Part shown: piece by piece, positions 9,498-37,001 of the stretch
Layout: each line of letters begins with the position of its first letter
Position numbering within the stretch: position 1 is the stretch's first letter
Assembly: GCA_046760805.1 (NCBI GenBank)
Contig: JBHIEV010000001.1
Location: 130 to 64,129 of the forward strand
Source of the DNA: Candidatus Bathyarchaeia archaeon
GTDB lineage: Archaea > Thermoproteota > Bathyarchaeia > Bathyarchaeales > Bathyarchaeaceae
Direction: 5' to 3'
Length of the DNA: 64,000 bases
Translations under genes and position numbers: made by a program
The notes under the pieces: generated by a model
What the model saw: only the letters and a program-made list of their open reading frames with translations
Told to the model about the DNA's origin: nothing
Database searches by the model: none

Positions 9498-10151
9498 ATG
9501 AGGTTTATAATATTTGGTCCTCCTGGTGCGGGTAAAGGCACCTACGCTTCTATGTTAGCATCCAAACTCAAGATAGCCAAAATATCCACTGGCGACATAA
9601 TTCGAGACAAGGTAAGACGAAACACAGACCTTGGAAAGAGTATGGCCGACTTTGTAAAGAAGGGCGACTTGGTTCCTGATGAAATCGTTATCGAAATCCT
9701 AAAGAAAGAGATCAGCAAACCATTCAGCAAAAACGGATTCATCTTGGATGGATATCCGAGGACGATCAAACAGGCAAAGGCGCTAGATGGCATTGAAAGG
9801 ATCGATGCAGTTATTCGTCTGGTTGTTCCGGAATGGGTTATCATAGAGCGGCTGTCAAGCAGAAGGACATGCAAGAAATGCGGTGCCATATACAATGTGA
9901 AATATTTGAAGCCGAAGAAGGAGGGCGTCTGCGATGTATGTGGGGGTGAGCTTTTCCAGCGTGAAGACGACAAGCCAGAAGTCATTAGAGAACGGTTGAG
10001 GGTTTACGAAGTGCAGACTCAACCACTAATAAATTACTACATGGACAGGACGCCCTTCATAGATATCGAATGTAAATCGGTGGATATTCCACCGGAAACC
10101 ATAGTTAAAGAGATATTACGAGAATTGCAGAATAAAGATTTAATGAGGTAA
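9498..10151 (+). CDS. adk: adenylate kinase (long form with zinc lid)
   Basis: 217 aa. P-loop GPPGAGKGT. Lid CKKCG...CDVCGG. Confidence 0.9.
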   Translation: MRFIIFGPPGAGKGTYASMLASKLKIAKISTGDIIRDKVRRNTDLGKSMADFVKKGDLVPDEIVIEILKKEISKPFSKNGFILDGYPRTIKQAKALDGIERIDAVIRLVVPEWVIIERLSSRRTCKKCGAIYNVKYLKPKKEGVCDVCGGELFQREDDKPEVIRERLRVYEVQTQPLINYYMDRTPFIDIECKSVDIPPETIVKEILRELQNKDLMR

Positions 10152-10918: not shown

Positions 10919-11338
10919 GTGATATTGATGGCGAAGAAACTGGTCTTAAAGATCGATAAGCCTCATTTCGTTGTTAAGCTTCACGAAGACACACTTGAGG
11001 TGGACTTAAAGGAAGGAGTCAAGAAGGAGCTTGAAGATGCAGTTGAGGCGCATCCAATCCTCAGGGAAAGCTTGGGAGTCCTATTCCAAACCTTAGTCCC
11101 TTTAGATGTTGCGTTGTGGGACATAGACTCTGCAGAAGTTGATGACAAAGGCCGATTGAAAATAGTGATTCCACTACGAAGAGACATTACCATTCCCTTG
11201 GAAGCCAACGAATCCAAGAAACTTGCCGAGAAGTTAAACGAATTAATACCCGTCGCCAAACTGAAGGACGCCGAGCGTATGAAAGCATTAGAGGAAGCGG
11301 AGGAAAGAGCGAAACCAAGAATGAGACGGCCGATGTAA
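10919..11338 (+). CDS. hypothetical protein (acidic, Lys/Glu-rich C-terminus)
   Basis: 139-aa ORF. The antisense ORF looks like a shadow. No motif recognised. Confidence 0.4.
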   Translation: MILMAKKLVLKIDKPHFVVKLHEDTLEVDLKEGVKKELEDAVEAHPILRESLGVLFQTLVPLDVALWDIDSAEVDDKGRLKIVIPLRRDITIPLEANESKKLAEKLNELIPVAKLKDAERMKALEEAEERAKPRMRRPM

Positions 11339-31642: not shown

Positions 31643-32848
31643 TTACTTCTTGCTTATTGTGAGGGACTCGAGGTCTCTTGGATAATATGTTATAATCTCT
31701 GCTCCGTCTTGGGTTATGACGACGGTGTCTGAGTGTCTGAATCCTGCGTATCCTGGTTTGTATATGCCTGGTTCGCAGCTGAAGACCATGCCTGGCTTCA
31801 TGATGGTGTCGTCGCCTATGTCTAGCCATGGTGGTTCGTGTCCTTCTAGGCCTAGTCCGTGGCCTGTGTGGTGTCTTATGAGGTCTTTGTAGCCCGCTTT
31901 TTCGATGGCCTTTCTTGCTGCCTTATCGACGTCGCTGCACTTTGCTCCTGGCTTATATGCTTCTAGGGCAGCATTCTGAGCCTTGAGCATAGCTTCGAAG
32001 AATCTTCTCTGTTTTTCGGTTGGTTCTCCTATGATCATGGTTCTTTCGAGTTCGCTGCTGTATCCGCCTATGTCTGCTCCTGCTCCGGTTATGACTATGT
32101 CTCCTTCTCTGATGGTTCTTTTGGTGCTGATTGCGTGGGGTATGGCTGACATTGGGCCGACTTGTCCTCTGAAGCCTGCAGCTGCTGGGCATAGTCCTCG
32201 TTTGCACGGTTCGTATTCTGGGCCTAGAGCTTTCTTCATGATCATTGATGCCTCGTAGGAGGCTGTTATTGCTATGTCAGCGTCCCATAAGCCGGGTTCC
32301 GTGTATTCTTGGAGGAGTGTGTGTGCTAGGTTTGCCCATTTGGCGCTTTCTTTGAGGAGTTCGATTTCCTCTTTTGATTTTATTATTCGCATTTTTTCGA
32401 CTATGTCTTTTGCTTCTATGAATTTGGTTTTGGGTAGTTTTTCTGTTATTGATGGTCCTTTGTAGCCCCATATCCCTGCTGCTCCTGCTGGGTTGTCTAT
32501 GCCTATTTTCTTCTTTTCTAGTTCCAGCTCTTTTAGGAATGTGGCGAAGTGGTCGATGGGATGTTTTTCTCCGGGGTAGTCTGGGTAGGTTTTGATGTTT
32601 TTTATTAGAGTGGTTTTGAGTGGGATGTGGTCTTTTTCTAGGTGGGGTCCCATGAAGGTTATTTCTTGCTCTAGGGGGATGATGAGTGCGGCTGGTCTTT
32701 CTGTTGGGATGTAGGAGTAGCCTGTGAGGTAGAGGAAGCTTGTGCCGCTGGTCAGGTATAGTGCGTCTAGTTTTCTCTTGGCCAGTTCGTTCCTAACCTT
32801 CTCGATTCTTCCCTTGTATTCTTTCTCGCTGATGGCTATTTTTGTCAT
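31643..32848 (-). CDS. M24-family Xaa-Pro peptidase (creatinase/prolidase fold)
   Basis: HHTGHGLGLEGHEPP and FSCEPGIY motifs. Start moved to MTKIAISEKEY (ATG 32848). The track ORF runs to 32905. Confidence 0.85.
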   Translation of the reverse strand: MTKIAISEKEYKGRIEKVRNELAKRKLDALYLTSGTSFLYLTGYSYIPTERPAALIIPLEQEITFMGPHLEKDHIPLKTTLIKNIKTYPDYPGEKHPIDHFATFLKELELEKKKIGIDNPAGAAGIWGYKGPSITEKLPKTKFIEAKDIVEKMRIIKSKEEIELLKESAKWANLAHTLLQEYTEPGLWDADIAITASYEASMIMKKALGPEYEPCKRGLCPAAAGFRGQVGPMSAIPHAISTKRTIREGDIVITGAGADIGGYSSELERTMIIGEPTEKQRRFFEAMLKAQNAALEAYKPGAKCSDVDKAARKAIEKAGYKDLIRHHTGHGLGLEGHEPPWLDIGDDTIMKPGMVFSCEPGIYKPGYAGFRHSDTVVITQDGAEIITYYPRDLESLTISKK

Positions 32849-32915
32849 AGAAACGCATCTCACTCTATATGGTTGAGTATCACTCATTTTTATGGTTGTA
32901 GGCATAAAGATTTAG

Positions 32916-32945
32916 TGGCGCCCAGGGATTGGATCCAAACCTACG
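32916..32945. repeat. degenerate tRNA-3'-half-like fragment (TGGCGCC...GGATCCAAACC)
   Basis: Resembles the minus-strand tRNA-Ser 3' end (TGGCGCCGGGAATGGGATTCGAACC) with indels. Does not fold as an intact T-arm. Confidence 0.3.
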
Positions 32946-32969
32946 TTTAAATCCTTGTTCTAGGACTTG

Positions 32970-33248
32970 ATGAAAGATGGCGAAAGATGGCTTAGTGTGG
33001 AAGAAAAAGCCTTAAGACTGTGGTTTGATCCTGAAGGGGGCCTTCTCGAAATAGGACAGACAAGACCTGCGAAAGGATTTTTCAGAGATGTTGGCAACGA
33101 TATATTCGTTAGGGTGGATCATGAGGGACATATAACGGGCTTCGTCGTGCTCAATGCGACTAAAAGAATGGCAAGAATAAGAGAGGTAAAGCTTCCTGTG
33201 AAAGCAACTTTTTCTAGAGCAGAAGAACGAAACATCCCAACTTCTTAA
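32970..33248 (+). CDS. DUF2283-like small protein
   Basis: LRLWFDPEGGLLEIG...VRVDHEGHITGFVVLNA matches the DUF2283 pattern. The true start may be the internal GTG (EEKALRLWF...). Confidence 0.5.
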   Translation: MKDGERWLSVEEKALRLWFDPEGGLLEIGQTRPAKGFFRDVGNDIFVRVDHEGHITGFVVLNATKRMARIREVKLPVKATFSRAEERNIPTS

Positions 33249-33260
33249 GAAATAACCGAC

Positions 33261-33271
33261 TTTGGTGCCGG
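33261..33271. repeat. partial copy of the tRNA-Ser 3' end (tttggtgccgg, 10/11 match)
   Basis: Matches tttggcgccgg with one mismatch. The downstream AGGTTCACA also resembles the AGGTTTACA that follows the 33498 copy. Confidence 0.4.
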
Positions 33272-33497
33272 TTTAGGTTCACACATAGTTTATAATCCAT
33301 TCAATTTTTTATCGAATGTTCTGTCTTCCAGCCAAGTGCACATCACCATCTCGAACTTTCCCTTGAACGCGATTAAATGCCAAAGCGTGCATTGTTCCAT
33401 TCTATTGATTCTAACCAAGTGAAAACCGCTCATAAATTGGTACGACGTAATTGTGAGGCCCCCCGCGTAACCTGGGGTTTAAACGTAGTTTGAGTAG

Positions 33498-33512
33498 TTT
33501 GGCGCCGGGAAT
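33498..33512. repeat. 15-bp exact direct repeat of the tRNA-Ser 3' end (att-like)
   Basis: tttggcgccgggaat is identical to 34086..34100, which covers CCA, discriminator, 3' acceptor strand and 2 nt of the T-stem of the minus-strand tRNA. Confidence 0.7.
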
Positions 33513-33602
33513 CAGGTTTACATCCCGGTTTGAATTCTCGGCGAATCTAAAATCCTAGAACGTAAGCTTTCAGTAAGTATTTTATGTTCAGCGCTGAAGA
33601 AG

Positions 33603-33860
33603 ATGTATGGAATAGGAATGGCAGTTGACTACACAGAGCATGCGACATTTCGGATGAGGCAGAGAACAATATCAAAAGCCAATGTTGAGGTCGCCATTCG
33701 AAACCCGGGTGTCAGTTTTATTACGCATTTTGGTAGATCTGTTGCATTCAAGAAGTACTGTGACAAGTTTCTCAAGGTAGTTTACGAAAAGAGCAACGAT
33801 AAAATAACATTGTTGCAGTTTATTGGACGAGGAGACTGCAGCGAAGATGATAAGAGTTGA
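33603..33860 (+). CDS. DUF4258-family putative toxin
   Basis: 85 aa. YTEHATFRMRQRTISKANVEVAI matches the DUF4258 N-terminal pattern. Confidence 0.6.
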   Translation: MYGIGMAVDYTEHATFRMRQRTISKANVEVAIRNPGVSFITHFGRSVAFKKYCDKFLKVVYEKSNDKITLLQFIGRGDCSEDDKS

Positions 33861-34065
33861 GTACGACTCAAAGGCTGACGCAATGTATATCTGGCTTAGG
33901 AAAGCCAGATATGAAATTAGCGAAGAGCTTGCGGAAAACGTTATCATAGATCTTGACAAACGTGGGCGCATAATTGGGATAGAGATCCTTGATGTATCGA
34001 AAAACTTGGGAAAGCAACTGGTGAACAAGATACTAACTACGGAAAAGTTGGCTGTAACGGGTTAA
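33847..34065 (+). CDS. DUF2283-family putative antitoxin
   Basis: MIRVEYDSKADAMYIWL...DLDKRGRIIGIEILDVSK. ATG 33847 overlaps the upstream stop (ATGATAAGAGTTGA). Confidence 0.65.
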   Translation: MIRVEYDSKADAMYIWLRKARYEISEELAENVIIDLDKRGRIIGIEILDVSKNLGKQLVNKILTTEKLAVTG

Positions 34066-34087
34066 CTTGATTGAAGGAACCATATTT

Positions 34088-34175
34088 TGGCGCCGGGAAT
34101 GGGATTCGAACCCATGCGGTCCAACGGGACCACAGGCTCTCAAGGCCTGCGCATTATCCACTCTGCCATCCCGGC
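34088..34175 (-). tRNA. tRNA-Ser (anticodon UGA), CCA encoded
   Basis: Hand-folded cloverleaf. Acceptor GCCGGGA/TCCCGGC, anticodon stem CAGGC/GCCTG with loop CTTGAGA, long variable arm GGTCC-CGTT-GGACC, T-arm ATGGG-TTCGAAT-CCCAT, discriminator G, then CCA. Confidence 0.9.
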
Positions 34176-34198
34176 ATGATTTCACTGACTACGCTTTG

Positions 34199-34212
34199 TC
34201 TTAAACCTTTTT
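34199..34212 (-). promoter_or_regulatory. BRE/TATA-like element (AAAAAGGTTTAAGA on the minus strand) for tRNA-Ser
   Basis: TTTAAGA is centred about 27 nt upstream of the tRNA 5' end and is preceded by a purine-rich tract. Confidence 0.45.
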
Positions 34213-34383
34213 ACCTTCCAGCGAATGATGAGGGATGATTTATGGGGGTAAAAGACAGTGAAATTTATTCTAAAGATGGTCGCAGAAATGTTGGTCAATT
34301 CTTCAGCTTTGCGCGTGCGGGGTATATGATAATTTTCTATGATTAGTTTCTGGAGTTTTGGTCTAGAAAACCTTAAAAACATT

Positions 34384-34397
34384 CAGATATATATCTG
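34384..34397. promoter_or_regulatory. 14-bp perfect palindrome CAGATATATATCTG (TATA-like)
   Basis: Ends 26 nt upstream of the TTG start at 34423. Consistent with a promoter for a near-leaderless transcript. Confidence 0.4.
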
Positions 34398-34422
34398 TTA
34401 AATACTCTTCGGAAGTGGGTTC

Positions 34423-34689
34423 TTGCAGAGAAGTCGATGGGACATTATGGCGAGGGTTCTATTTGTTGCGAAGTGCCCTGAGTCAAAGACTCACCTTATG
34501 TATGGGGCTAATCTCAGCTTCAGGCAGCTTGAGAAGTATCTGGAGTTTCTTCTTGATAGGGACCTTTTGAGAGTATCAGAGAGCGAGAGTAAGAATCCAA
34601 AGTTGTACATAATCACAGAGAAGGGTCTATCTTTTCTTAAGGCCTATCATGAATTGAAAGAGATTATTGGAGAGAAGAAGCGTTCCTAG
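34423..34689 (+). CDS. small winged-helix protein (COG3432-like archaeal regulator)
   Basis: 88 aa. THLMYGANLSFRQLEKYLEFLLDRDLL...ITEKGLSFLKAY. Paralogous to 35748..36110. Confidence 0.55.
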   Translation: MQRSRWDIMARVLFVAKCPESKTHLMYGANLSFRQLEKYLEFLLDRDLLRVSESESKNPKLYIITEKGLSFLKAYHELKEIIGEKKRS

Positions 34690-34901
34690 CACGTTTGGTC
34701 TTCGTTGAGGAATTTCATCAGTGAAGGTGTGACCTTCACCTTTTCATGTTTGGGATCATAATCTATGAAGTTGTAATTGGTTAAGAATTCGAGAATCTTG
34801 TTGGTTTGGGATTGTGGTAGTTTCGTCTTCTTGATAATGTCCTCTAGGGTGTGCCACTGATCGTCTTTTATTAGGCTTACGACTTCGTCGATTTCCCGCA
34901 A
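34686..34901 (-). CDS. small winged-helix-like protein
   Basis: 71 aa. WHTLEDIIKKTKLPQSQTNKILEFLTNYNFIDYD resembles a wHTH recognition unit. Confidence 0.45.
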   Translation of the reverse strand: MREIDEVVSLIKDDQWHTLEDIIKKTKLPQSQTNKILEFLTNYNFIDYDPKHEKVKVTPSLMKFLNEDQTC

Positions 34902-34983
34902 GGTTGTCAGATCCTTTTGAGAGCATTTCTAGTTGTGGAAATAAAGGCTTTGTGAAATTTCCTTTTATAACAAAGCGGGTTGT

Positions 34984-35187
34984 CTTCTAGAAGAATAGAG
35001 AAGAGTTATAGAACACTGTTCTTGAAGTTAGTGTTTTGGCAGTTTATAGATTTGAAGTATAGAAGAATTGTATGAAATTCTAGAAAAAAGGCACATATCT
35101 TCTGCCTAGAAGAACTCTTCTGAGTTCTTAAATATGTGAAGAGGTTAACTAGGCTAAAGATCGTGTCTGAGCTTCTCGAAGAGAAGC
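34984..35187. promoter_or_regulatory. cluster of CTTCT/AGAAG-based palindromes in a divergent intergenic region (candidate operators)
   Basis: Five palindromes: CTTCTAGAAG (34984-34993), TTCTAGAA (35078-35085), AGAAGA-AC-TCTTCT (35108-35121), AGAACTC-TTCT-GAGTTCT (35111-35128) and GCTTCTC-GAA-GAGAAGC (35171-35187). Confidence 0.45.
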
Positions 35188-35221
35188 GAGTGTACTTATC
35201 CGCTCCCGATCATGGAGGGAT

Positions 35222-35626
35222 TTGATAGTGGATGGTAGAGAATGGAGAGAGTTCGTGGATAGTCTGAGAGCTTGTTGGAGGCTTTTGTGGCAGCATAGGA
35301 TAGATGATAGAGTGAGGGCTGAGGGCATTGCCAGTGAGGATTACGATTTGTTGTTTGTTGATAAGGGAACTGTTATAGTGGCTACTAGGGATTATAAGCC
35401 TCCTAATTTCAGGGAGATTTTGGAGCAGCATGCGGAGGATAGGCAAGCAGGTAGGGTTGAGGATCCAAATCCTGTCGTGGGTGGTTGGGGAAAGTTTGTG
35501 CGGGAGGTCATAGGTAGGCAAGAGAGGTTTACGAAGGGTGGTAGGCTGATTCCTTCTGAGCCTGAGAAAAAGAAGCAACAGCTTAAGAAAGGTGGGAAGG
35601 GCTGGCTTCACGTTAGAATGAGATGA
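35222..35626 (+). CDS. hypothetical protein (Arg/Trp-rich, basic C-terminus)
   Basis: 134-aa ORF. Preferred over the antisense 154-aa ORF, which is low-complexity Pro/Thr/Leu. No motif recognised. Confidence 0.35.
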   Translation: MIVDGREWREFVDSLRACWRLLWQHRIDDRVRAEGIASEDYDLLFVDKGTVIVATRDYKPPNFREILEQHAEDRQAGRVEDPNPVVGGWGKFVREVIGRQERFTKGGRLIPSEPEKKKQQLKKGGKGWLHVRMR

Positions 35627-35747
35627 ATGGTTGTTCTTCTTTTCGATTTTTGGCTGTGTGTGCTTTGTGTACAAGAATTGGTGAGTTTTAGTTATTTTTT
35701 TGTTGTTTTTGTGCTTGTTGTTGCTGGACGATTTGGTGTGGTTGTGG

Positions 35748-36110
35748 ATGGGTAGGTATAGGAGTAGGATGGAGATTGTTGCTGATATTCTATCTGTGGC
35801 TAGAGGTGGGGCTAAGAAGACGCAGATTATGTATCAGGCGAATTTGAGTTATAAGCTTTTGACTAGTTATTTGAAGTATGTTATTGATGTGGGGTTGGTG
35901 GGGATGGAGGATGGGGACATTTATCAGCTTACGGATAAGGGCTCGGATTTCCTTCAGGAGTTTAAGAGTTATTTTGAGCGTCGTGTGGAGGTTGAGGAGG
36001 AGTTGAGTAACGTACAAGATGAAAGGAAGCTGTTGGTGAATAGGTTTCTCAATGCGGGGAGGATGGGTGCTGGTTCGAAAAATCCGGCTGGCAAGAAGGG
36101 TGAGAAATAA
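35748..36110 (+). CDS. winged-helix protein (COG3432-like), paralog of 34423..34689
   Basis: RMEIVADILSVARGGAKKTQIMYQANLSYKLLTSYLKYVIDVGLV...LTDKGSDFLQEF. The start is placed at an internal ATG because the track ORF's first 16 codons are low-complexity. Confidence 0.55.
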   Translation: MGRYRSRMEIVADILSVARGGAKKTQIMYQANLSYKLLTSYLKYVIDVGLVGMEDGDIYQLTDKGSDFLQEFKSYFERRVEVEEELSNVQDERKLLVNRFLNAGRMGAGSKNPAGKKGEK

Positions 36111-36308
36111 GGAGGAGTGTGAGATGAATGATTCACAGTTTTCCCACGTTTTTGCCTCTCATCCGCAGTATAAGGAAAGAAAGGCCTAGATTAGGCTGAC
36201 AAGCCTAGCGTGTTATTTGACAAATTCGCGTACATTTTAGGAATTTAGGGACAAGGCAGCGCTCGTGCTTAAAAGAACTTATATAATTTCTTGTTCAGTC
36301 TTTAGGTT

Positions 36309-36647
36309 ATGCTCAAGATACATGAGGAGATGCTGGAAGGATTTAAGAGGTTAGATGCTACCGTCTTGGTCTACGGGTCCGTGGCCAAGGGGAGATCCAG
36401 AATAGATTCGGATATTGATGTAGCTGTGATAACGGAGAATCCAGAGGTGAAAGAGGAAGCTGAAAGACTTGCCGATGAGGTGTTGTTGGAACATGGAAGG
36501 GTTGTGAGTATAGTGTACTTCTCACCAGAAAGGTTCAAAAAGATGGTTGATAGGCCTTTCATTCGTGATGTTTTGAGTGGAGAGGTTTTGCATGATAGAG
36601 GAGACTTCATTAAAGGAGTTAGTAGAGGAAGAGCTTCAATCAGCTAA
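36309..36647 (+). CDS. minimal nucleotidyltransferase (MNT), HEPN-partner antitoxin type
   Basis: 112 aa. VLVYGSVAKGRSRIDSDIDVAV (GS...DxD NTase motif). Confidence 0.8.
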   Translation: MLKIHEEMLEGFKRLDATVLVYGSVAKGRSRIDSDIDVAVITENPEVKEEAERLADEVLLEHGRVVSIVYFSPERFKKMVDRPFIRDVLSGEVLHDRGDFIKGVSRGRASIS

Positions 36648-37001
36648 CGAAAGGATTGAGGCTGCAGAAATACTGTTGAAAAGGGACAAACTGGTAGATG
36701 CCGTTAACAGGATCTACTACGGAATTTCCATGCTGCTAAAGCCGTCCTGAATTCGCTGGGAAGGGATACTAAAACTCACTCTGGATTGATCTCGGAATTC
36801 GGGTTGCACGTGGTAAAACCAGGCTTGATGAAGAAAGAATTTGCTAGGATACTGCGTCGGAGTTTTGAGGCTAGAGAGACAGGGAACTATGTGATTGGAG
36901 CCGAATTCGGGAAGAAAGAAGTTGAGAACATGTTAAATGATGCAAAACTTTTCATCAAGGAAGCTCGAAGACTGACCAAAGAACGGTTGAAGAAGTATTA
37001 G
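36592..37001 (+). pseudogene. HEPN-domain gene disrupted by a 1-nt frameshift
   Basis: Frame 1 from ATG 36592 reads MIEETSLKELVEEELQSANERIEAAEILLKRDKLVDAVNRIYYGI, then stops at 36748. The HEPN sequence continues in the frame one nucleotide back as FHAAKAVLNSLGRDTKTHSGLISEFGLHVVK..., ending at 37001. The junction is the T-run at 36725-36727 (GGAATTTCCATG versus expected GGAATTTTCCATG). Confidence 0.7.

Follow-up and report, generated by a model that had tools for sequence, protein, structure and literature searches.

Putative toxin–antitoxin cassettes without integrase genes, probably stacked by integration at the 3′ end of a tRNA-Ser(UGA) gene in a Bathyarchaeia archaeon

Introduction

The 64-kb window of the genome of an uncultured Bathyarchaeia archaeon analysed here (the whole stretch of DNA, whose numbering is used for all coordinates and strands) contains a single tRNA gene, that of tRNA-Ser(UGA). 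The 1182 nt (~1.18 kb) separating it from a conserved gene of an M24 peptidase carry short copies of the tRNA 3′ end and small genes of the DUF4258 and DUF2283 families. This arrangement raises the question of how such short segments came to lie next to the tRNA gene, and whether they are units in their own right or debris. The original prediction, made from the sequence alone, treated them as scars of serial integration into the tRNA gene, retaining only toxin–antitoxin (TA) genes. A comparison with loci of other genomes and metagenomes (designated L001, L002 and so on) leads to a more specific answer, which we consider fairly probable: the interval consists of three stacked cassettes lacking integrase genes, inserted by site-specific recombination at the tRNA 3′ end.

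Results

The interval is an insertion

The peptidase of the window is 86% identical to that of one Bathyarchaeia metagenome-assembled genome (MAG). Its identity to the peptidases of CP070826 (L002) and CP070749 (L003), both closed MAG chromosomes of Bathyarchaeota, is 78–80%. The two chromosomes supply the empty sites that the original prediction had suggested looking for in related genomes. In L002, tRNA-Ser(UGA) (9808–9895; 96.7% identical to the tRNA of the window) is separated by 105 nt from the peptidase ATG at 10001, and in L003 (tRNA at 9731–9818; 87% identity, including 40 nt of the promoter) the gap to the ATG at 10001 is 182 nt, so the window contains about 1.1 kb of extra DNA. The blastn comparison revealed no counterpart of window positions 32922–34084 in either genome; homology to L003 ends at 32921 and resumes at 34085–34214 (tRNA and promoter), and homology to related genomes as a whole ends at 32915–32921. 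L002 and L003 represent empty sites, and the interval is an insertion. The tRNA gene itself sits at a synteny break, since it is absent next to the peptidase gene in the closest relatives by peptidase identity (L001, L009–L011) and in 19 metagenome loci; none of the 28 peptidase-anchored metagenome loci contains the tRNA, so they provide no further empty or occupied alleles.

Copies of the tRNA 3′ end and a conserved arm

The 15-mer TTTGGCGCCGGGAAT corresponds, as its reverse complement, to the final two bases of the T-stem, the 3′ strand of the acceptor and the discriminator, followed by CCA (encoded within the gene) and two further bases. It occurs exactly twice in the window, at the tRNA and at the far end of the adjoining segment (core A, Table 1), the latter being the position given in the original prediction. 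We estimate the chance of an exact second copy at ~1e-4. Core A has the correct orientation and lies on the downstream side of the tRNA, 573 nt from its 3′ end (counted end to start). Two more degenerate copies, B and C, had been proposed further out. A local-alignment scan of the interval against the tRNA (shuffles: mean 18.4, standard deviation 2.3) singled out copy A (score 31) as the sole copy standing out from the shuffles. Copy C (32916–32945) scored 22, about 1.5 standard deviations above the shuffle mean, and copy B, which is indeed 10/11 identical to the tRNA end, scored 17, below the mean, and is not significant alone.

Table 1. Features of the interval between the tRNA-Ser(UGA) and M24 peptidase genes, listed from the tRNA outwards; roles of the small genes are predicted.
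Feature	Position	Strand	Basis or remark
tRNA-Ser(UGA), putative docking site	34088–34175	−	ARAGORN; Rfam RF00005, 61.6 bits
Proximal core: last 13 nt of the tRNA and 2 flanking nt	34086–34100	−	docking-site copy
Cassette 1: putative DUF4258 toxin and DUF2283 antitoxin	33498–34085		
DUF2283 gene, putative antitoxin, intact, 72 aa from ATG	33847–34065 (open reading frame 33823–34065)	+	Pfam PF10049, 69 bits
DUF4258 gene, putative toxin, degenerate	33618–33860 (open reading frame 33603–33860)	+	Pfam PF14076, 28.5 bits
Arm A, conserved cassette-end sequence CAGGTTTACATCCCGGTTTGAATTCTCGGCGAAT	33513–33546	+	model R1, 33.8 bits, E=1.5e-9
Core A, distal (attR-type) boundary of cassette 1	33498–33512	+	exact 15-nt direct repeat, reverse complement of ATTCCCGGCGCCAAA
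Orphan segment, "cassette 2" position	33299–33497 (with site B 33261–33497)		no recognisable gene or RNA
Site B: decayed core TTTGGTGCCGG (33261–33271) and arm TTTAGGTTCACACATAGTTTATAATCC	33261–33298	+	R1 match at 33263–33312, 7.8 bits, E=0.22, rank 4
Cassette 3: lone second-type DUF2283 gene, putative antitoxin	32916–33260		
Second-type DUF2283 gene	32970–33248 (open reading frame 32967–33248)	+	weak Pfam DUF2283 match, 21 bits (cutoff 23)
Site C, presumably the oldest core and arm: TGGCGCC(CA)GGGA and TTGGATCCAAACCTACGTTTAAATCCTTG	32916–32957	+	R1, 11 bits, E=0.021, rank 2
M24 peptidase gene, conserved host gene bounding the array, synteny anchor	31643–32905	−	Pfam; related loci L001–L036

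Each boundary consists of a tRNA 3′ core of 11–15 nt (a copy of the last 11–15 bases of the tRNA) and a conserved arm of ~30 nt, TAGGTTTA-N6-GGTTTAAATTCTCGG. The alignment that had been recommended for the four sites of the window was extended to eleven core and arm sites, nine external sites were also aligned among themselves, and the contexts of DUF2283 homologues revealed the arm in other genomes. The resemblance between the flanks of copies B and A (AGGTTTACA and AGGTTCACA) pointed out earlier is real, but is actually part of this arm. The sequence-only model R1, built from the nine external sites with no window sequence included, was run across the whole window with filters off (Table 1). 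The supposed rise of degeneracy with distance from the tRNA holds for the core, which is identical at A (15/15), matches at 10 of 11 positions at B and has a 2-nt insertion at C, but not for the arm-inclusive model, where C outscores B. The rank-3 match of R1 (11216–11243, minus strand), considered as a fourth site (11216–11260), was rejected as a coincidence: it reads TTTGGCGACGGGTAT followed by TAATTCGTTTAACTTCTCGG, like a Ser-type core with two mismatches and half an arm, and lies within the open reading frame (ORF) 10919–11338 (plus strand) of a 139-aa protein with 88 homologues, where it encodes the conserved motif EKLNELIPxAK. As this match is spurious, the assignment of B and C is based on position together with score, and not on score alone. 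Both weak matches are on the correct strand, at gene boundaries and within the 600 nt that separate copy A from the peptidase gene; such a placement by chance is very unlikely (< 1e-5 by our estimate). An R1 search of the empty-site and unrelated loci found no matches.

Caveats apply to both outer copies. Part of site B (CGACTTTGGTGC, and the TGGTGC) is also found in L048, where it forms the right end of a DUF2283-type cassette of the same kind, so site B was partly inherited with the cassette and is not purely a mutated tRNA-Ser end. The degenerate copy C reported earlier is recovered by R1 as a core with an arm, but its CCA belongs to CCACTAAATCTTTATG, a promoter-flank sequence common to L002 and L003, the genomes that keep the tRNA. 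The 13-nt core of this box, CTAAATCTTTATG, is found upstream of the peptidase gene in L001, L002, L003, L009 and L011, and 12 of the 13 nt are present in L012 (TAAATCTTTATG); the box is probably the peptidase promoter. In the window it lies at 32903–32915 (CATAAAGATTTAG, reverse complement CTAAATCTTTATG) and directly adjoins site C. The peptidase alignments start at residue 14–22 in L001, L009–L011 and the majority of the more distant loci, and from residue 1 in L002 and L003; the L001 ORF begins at the conserved MVKISISEKEY, so the real start of the peptidase gene may be the ATG at 32848 rather than at 32905.

By inspection, the cassette ends are not inverted repeats, and neither terminal inverted repeats nor a transposon-type target duplication were seen. 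A 17-nt inverted repeat with 88% complementarity connects positions 32938–32954 of arm C (AACCTACGTTTAAATCC) with 33475–33491, to the left of core A (GGGTTTAAACGTAGTTT), and both halves include a palindromic TTTAAA box. The 5′ acceptor strand and upstream flank of the tRNA (CATCCCGG...) match copy A as well, as if this copy were a "mini-tRNA", i.e., a tRNA with a deleted body; this candidate was ruled out, as the CATCYCGG/AACTCGG stretch is present in the arm even at tRNA-Leu, where the complementarity is absent. The Rfam scan of 32000–35500 at E ≤ 10 found nothing beyond the tRNA.

Cassette genes and their decay

Pfam searches confirmed the DUF4258/DUF2283 pair that had been read from the sequence in cassette 1. 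The DUF2283 gene overlaps the stop codon of the DUF4258 gene by 14 nt, so the pair consists, as in type II TA modules, of two overlapping small genes, one with a toxin-family domain; judging from their sequences, DUF4258/DUF2283 pairs would act as toxin and antitoxin. The DUF4258 gene of the window is degenerate. DNA and protein alignments with five homologues locate a 1-nt deletion between 33809 and 33810, which swaps the conserved C-terminus ITVVTVYWTRR... for ITLLQFIGRGDCSEDDKS, and several non-conservative changes are present as well. A TATA-like box, AGTAAGTATTTTATG, at 33572–33586 upstream of this gene is kept in all copies and would act as a promoter. The intact DUF2283 gene ends 20 nt before the core and 22 nt before the tRNA 3′ end; it has 571 homologues (E ≤ 1e-5), the best 120 listed of which are 81–100% identical and belong to Bathyarchaeia. 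Decay of the cassette-1 DUF4258 gene recurs elsewhere, with a 19-nt deletion in the copy of L042 and a broken copy in the reference bin BA1, and the antitoxin gene of this cassette is intact everywhere.

The lone gene of cassette 3, likewise predicted to be DUF2283-like, remains below the Pfam cutoff, and its 35 homologues (64–91% identical) are annotated as DUF2283; they start at the position of the GTG at 32997. In L044–L049, this second-type gene is preceded by an overlapping gene of 106–111 aa with a weak match (E=1.4e-4 in L044) to PBECR2, a Barnase/EndoU/RelE-like nuclease family. In the window, homology starts at 32982 (blastn) and only ~15 nt of the 3′ end of the putative toxin gene are left, making the cassette-3 DUF2283 an orphan antitoxin. 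At this locus, toxins decay and antitoxins are retained. The idea that addiction modules outlive their mobile elements is therefore borne out for the antitoxins, but not for whole modules, as the DUF4258 gene is frameshifted and the cassette-3 toxin gene is lost. Similarly, the claim that the segments contain TA genes only is correct for two of the three: the only ORF of the orphan segment (33290–33433, minus strand, 47 aa) lacks both Pfam matches and homologues, the DNA of the segment has no match in 76 loci, and folding z-scores of +0.97 and +2.1 indicate no RNA structure.

The interval contains no integrase, as had been stated. Pfam searches revealed only three small ORFs with DUF4258/DUF2283 matches, and a tblastn search with the integrase of L069 (described below) was negative across the whole window, no search being made for recombinases of other types. 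Exact-protein look-ups of the TA proteins of the window returned no record, neither family has a relative of solved structure by sequence, and the literature search yielded no paper linking DUF4258 with DUF2283 and nothing useful on either family.

The same unit at three tRNA genes

The arm of site A was also found in L039, L061, L042, L064, L050 and L074, and it occurs together with the cassette at three different tRNA genes, in at least six further genomic contexts. In other Bathyarchaeia, the unit composed of core, arm and DUF4258/DUF2283 genes adjoins tRNA-Ser(UGA) (L039, core TTGGCGCCGGGGA), tRNA-Ser(CGA) with inserts (L061, core TGGCGCCGGGGAA) and a tRNA-Leu(GAG) array (L064/L065, core TGGTGCGGGGGGT, corresponding to the 3′ end of the tRNA-Leu there). 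In every case the core agrees with the local tRNA, and it changes with the target, as predicted by integration at different tRNA genes. In L037–L041, which have another neighbourhood (a DUF3096 gene and thiolase), the order is TTGGCGCCGGGGA, AATAGGTTTACATCTCGGTTTAAATTCTCGG, the TATA-like box, DUF4258 and DUF2283, followed by tRNA-Ser(UGA) on the opposite strand. In the 2.2-Mb contig of L061, the block adjoins a tRNA-Ser(CGA) gene with inserts in the anticodon loop and T-loop, and in L051–L073, a single locus represented by strain variants, the block lies outermost in the tRNA-Leu(GAG) array.

Cassette 1 has the same type of left end (core and arm) in five other contexts: L039, L061 and the tRNA-Leu array variants L064, L065 and L069; decayed arms are found in L063 and BA1. 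The stop codon and the right end are 16–21 nt apart in the window, L039, L042 and L063, and 44 nt apart in L061; in L064, an arm and not a tRNA end follows cassette 1. The presence of the arm in at least six contexts at three tRNA genes indicates that the segments are discrete units with fixed ends, and not the arbitrary leftovers that the original prediction implied.

Different TA cassettes occupy sites of the same type. In BA1 (L074, LIHJ01000089), a Ser-type core and arm (22.9 bits, E=1e-6) precede a pair consisting of a 49-aa protein gene and a PIN gene, followed by tRNA-Ser(CGA), and a decayed DUF4258/DUF2283 cassette sits further out than the PIN cassette. At the tRNA-Leu locus, the tRNA-Leu of L065 comes directly after the shared outer array; L064, L066, L067 and L072 have an added core and arm unit with an 89-aa protein gene and a GNAT gene, then a further arm; L068–L070 contain a 30-nt displaced tRNA fragment and then a 6-kb element that has small ORFs and encodes a 600-aa protein as well as a tyrosine integrase (PF00589; 7479–8504, minus strand, in L069), the ORF of which begins within tRNA-Leu(UAG). 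Taken together, the variants L065, L068–L070 and L064 and the arrangement in BA1 indicate that the same docking site takes different cassettes, while older ones are pushed outward and decay.

Several further features of these loci were observed. The variable arm, T-arm and acceptor of the tRNA encode residues MPQGCVGSNPTP of the L069 integrase. In L068–L070 the regenerated gene is tRNA-Leu(UAG), and the element-free variant has tRNA-Leu(GAG) at the corresponding place, which suggests recombination between two Leu isoacceptor sites with a common 3′ end. An IS110-family transposase gene (L053/L068, 344–1408) directly precedes the cassette-1 arm, in a variant without the core and first arm bases. 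In L042 (6240–6940), the DUF4258/DUF2283 pair is followed by a tRNA-Ser remnant consisting of just the 3′ 45 nt, then by an RHH-type pair encoded on the opposite strand and a full Ser core and arm; this arm is identical to that of L039, the order is unlike that of a simple stack, and 1.3 kb beyond these features the contig ends. The tRNA-Ser(CGA) genes near the cassettes (L061 5265–5400 and L074 6037–6205, both on the minus strand) contain ~25 nt extra after the anticodon and ~21 nt in the T-loop, where the sequence is GGGATTT[TCAGGAGG..CCTCCC]TTTGAACCC; the inserts are probably archaeal introns at canonical and non-canonical positions. The L061 gene was called neither by ARAGORN nor by Rfam at E ≤ 1, and ARAGORN, the only program run on L074, made no call there.

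Discussion

How the cassettes may have accumulated

According to the reading we favour, the target would be the extreme 3′ end of the tRNA gene (the acceptor 3′ strand, discriminator, CCA and 1–3 further nt), and the incoming unit would carry the ~30-nt arm beside an 11–15 nt core matching the tRNA end. Integration would regenerate the tRNA and leave the core and arm at the far end of the unit, and the next integration would displace the earlier unit outward, so the order from the tRNA would run from youngest to oldest: cassette 1, the orphan segment, cassette 3. Captured cargo would then decay, as the frameshifted toxin gene of cassette 1 and the deleted toxin gene of cassette 3 would illustrate, with antitoxins being kept. 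We infer that the cassettes were moved by a tyrosine-type recombinase that was either provided in trans or later lost, and the arm is a candidate for its binding arm. If so, the circular or excised junction of cassette 1 would be expected to read GGAACCATA-TTTGGCGCCGGGAAT-CAGGTTTACATCC, and the cassette-1-free allele GTTTGAGTAG-TTTGGCGCCGGGAAT-GGGATTCGAACC. The serial integration at the tRNA proposed originally agrees with the att-like orientation of the repeats and with the strain variants L064–L070 at another locus, but the arrivals were probably not recent.

A number of observations weigh against this reading. Sites B and C are individually weak, and the comparable match at 11216 proved spurious. 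The CCA of site C adjoins the promoter box without the 90–170 nt spacer of L002 and L003, so a further deletion must be assumed. The arm-type cassettes cannot be tied to a recombinase: the intact integrase element (L069) has a longer core of ~30 nt and no arm. The cassette and arm are absent from IMG/VR viral contigs, as found in DNA-pattern scans and one protein scan, and no partner element carrying the arm was found. Some internal boundaries, e.g., after DUF2283 in L064, contain the arm without the core, which suggests composite units or decay. Between genomes the cassettes diverge (77–86% DNA identity) no less than housekeeping genes do, so much of the distribution could be vertical and the activity ancient. 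Finally, with its TTTAAAT box the arm could function as a promoter, either instead of or in addition to its proposed role.

Alternative explanations

The intact 6-kb element with an integrase that lies in an array of this kind (L068–L070), and integrase fragments near the peptidase gene in other Bathyarchaeia (L003, L004, L021), would fit another origin of the segments, namely as random leftovers of once-large integrase-bearing elements, viruses or plasmids, that shrank by deletion while addictive TA genes survived. The orphan segment does look like debris, and the loss of the cassette-3 toxin gene shows that deletions happen at this locus. However, independent deletions would not reproduce the same ends of cassette 1 in several contexts at three tRNA genes, different TA cassettes share the same arm, and the integrase element that was observed has a different att architecture. 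We regard this origin as rather unlikely; the cassettes look like discrete units lacking integrase genes rather than random debris.

Perhaps, going beyond stacked insertions at single loci, Bathyarchaeia possess an integron-like capture system, in which the 3′ ends of class II tRNA genes (Ser, Leu) dock small TA or defence cassettes of 0.3–2 kb, each bearing the core and the ~30-nt arm, and the recombinase that inserts, stacks and exchanges them is encoded outside the cassettes and away from the site, e.g., a host Xer-type or unrecognised enzyme; this proposal seems unlikely to us. The array has a superficial likeness to integron gene-cassette arrays, also reported in Archaea (PMC9668308), in the small cassettes of one to three genes, often TA, in one orientation, the fixed docking site and the short conserved sequence resembling a recombination site. 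Integrons differ in having an IntI-type integrase beside the docking site, which is absent here: the 5′ side of the window tRNA encodes only winged helix-turn-helix (wHTH) proteins and a nucleotidyltransferase/HEPN pair, and there is no integrase next to the tRNA in L039, L061 and L074. They also differ in their attC sites of 57–141 nt with imperfect inverted repeats (R''-L''...L'-R') folding as hairpins, whereas the arm is ~30 nt long and, by inspection, not palindromic; a 7-bp hairpin between core and arm, also seen by inspection, is present in Ser-type sites and absent in Leu-type ones. Moreover, docking here is at a tRNA 3′ end, and the cassette genes lie in either orientation with their own promoters.

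The conserved block GGTTTAAAT of the arm, its most conserved part, resembles an archaeal TATA box, the TTTAAAA of the L064 arm lies ~30 nt before a possible start codon and the TTTAAAT of site C lies 24 nt before the ATG at 32970. The arm might then be mainly regulatory, as a promoter with a B recognition element and TATA box or as an operator, and its position at tRNA ends secondary. This is improbable: cassette 1 has its own conserved TATA-like box nearer the genes, arms also precede opposite-strand genes (the 116/101/RAMA genes of L064; L042), every arm is joined directly to a tRNA 3′ core, or to what is left of one, and points the same way with respect to the tRNA, and neither the window nor unrelated loci contain other strong matches.

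Least probable of all is that no integration took place, the link between cassette and tRNA being ancestral and vertical, with flank differences due to rearrangement, loss of the segment in L002 and L003 and chance matches at B and C; the genome-like divergence of the cassettes, the weakness of B and C alone beside one spurious match of similar score and the rearrangements implied by the missing tRNA in the closest relatives would agree with it, but an exact 15-nt direct repeat brackets the cassette, the core co-varies with the adjacent tRNA (Ser versus Leu), different cassettes occupy the same site in L061 and BA1, and two R1 matches fall within the right 600 nt, on the right strand and at gene boundaries.

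Comparison with known systems

The stack of cassettes at the tRNA 3′ end is a known kind of tDNA integration hot spot with an unusually small cargo, and the cassettes form a modestly new family. tDNA islands and their tandem arrays are the principle behind Islander (PMC4383910). As in such islands, an intact tRNA gene is followed downstream by its displaced 3′ fragment in the same orientation, related genomes have empty sites, the element lies 3′ of the regenerated tRNA with the fragment at the far end, arrays grow by successive integrations that leave the older units on the outside, and the core covers an asymmetric 3′ gene end. Unlike them, no unit here contains an integrase, and the Islander filters would reject all three; the units measure 0.2–0.6 kb instead of several kb, the identity block is 11–15 nt and the arm is shared across different cargo.

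Cis-mobilizable elements (CIMEs) are bacterial elements that have lost integration and transfer genes and kept attL and attR (PMC6323972). Cassette 1 is similarly bracketed by an exact core without a recombinase, and sites B and C are decayed; the shared features are the lack of integrase and transfer genes, att-type repeats at a tRNA-linked site and the tandem arrangement with integrase elements (L068–L070). The differences are the archaeal host, the absence of a known conjugative partner, the cargo of one TA pair and a mobilisation that is putative here.

Sublocations of integration within tRNA genes are said to have been described by Williams in 2002. She, Peng and Garrett reportedly described in 2001 a "gene capture" of integrated elements in Sulfolobus. 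There, too, archaeal tRNA-integrated elements are trapped, decay and leave direct repeats and captured genes, but with partitioned SSV-type integrase halves, while the present cassettes have no integrase fragment and uniform ends.

The cargo resembles type II TA modules with RelE/Barnase-like RNase toxins in that two small genes overlap, with the DUF4258 or PBECR2-like gene upstream of DUF2283, in a mobile or variable region and with the toxin lost first; it differs in that the assignment of DUF4258 and DUF2283 is a sequence-based prediction for families that no paper in the literature searched connects.

The locus places an integration hot spot and its cassettes in Bathyarchaeia, an abundant uncultured lineage with poorly known mobile elements, and is a clear example of toxin genes decaying while antitoxins persist. 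The combination of a tRNA 3′ core with TAGGTTTA-N6-GGTTTAAATTCTCGG can serve as a search key, which finds TA cassettes in several genomes, including BA1. Mobilisation in trans, if it occurs, would make the cassettes the archaeal equivalent of bacterial hitchhiker elements without integrases and would open a route to the recombinase that moves them.

The 5′ side of the tRNA gene (34423–37001) is likewise island-like, and nothing of it is common to L002 or L003. It contains two HTH_45 winged-helix genes and a small wHTH gene, as well as an NTP_transf_2 gene followed by a HEPN domain split across two ORFs (36577–36750 and 36786–37001); the NTP_transf_2 and HEPN genes resemble a second decaying TA pair.

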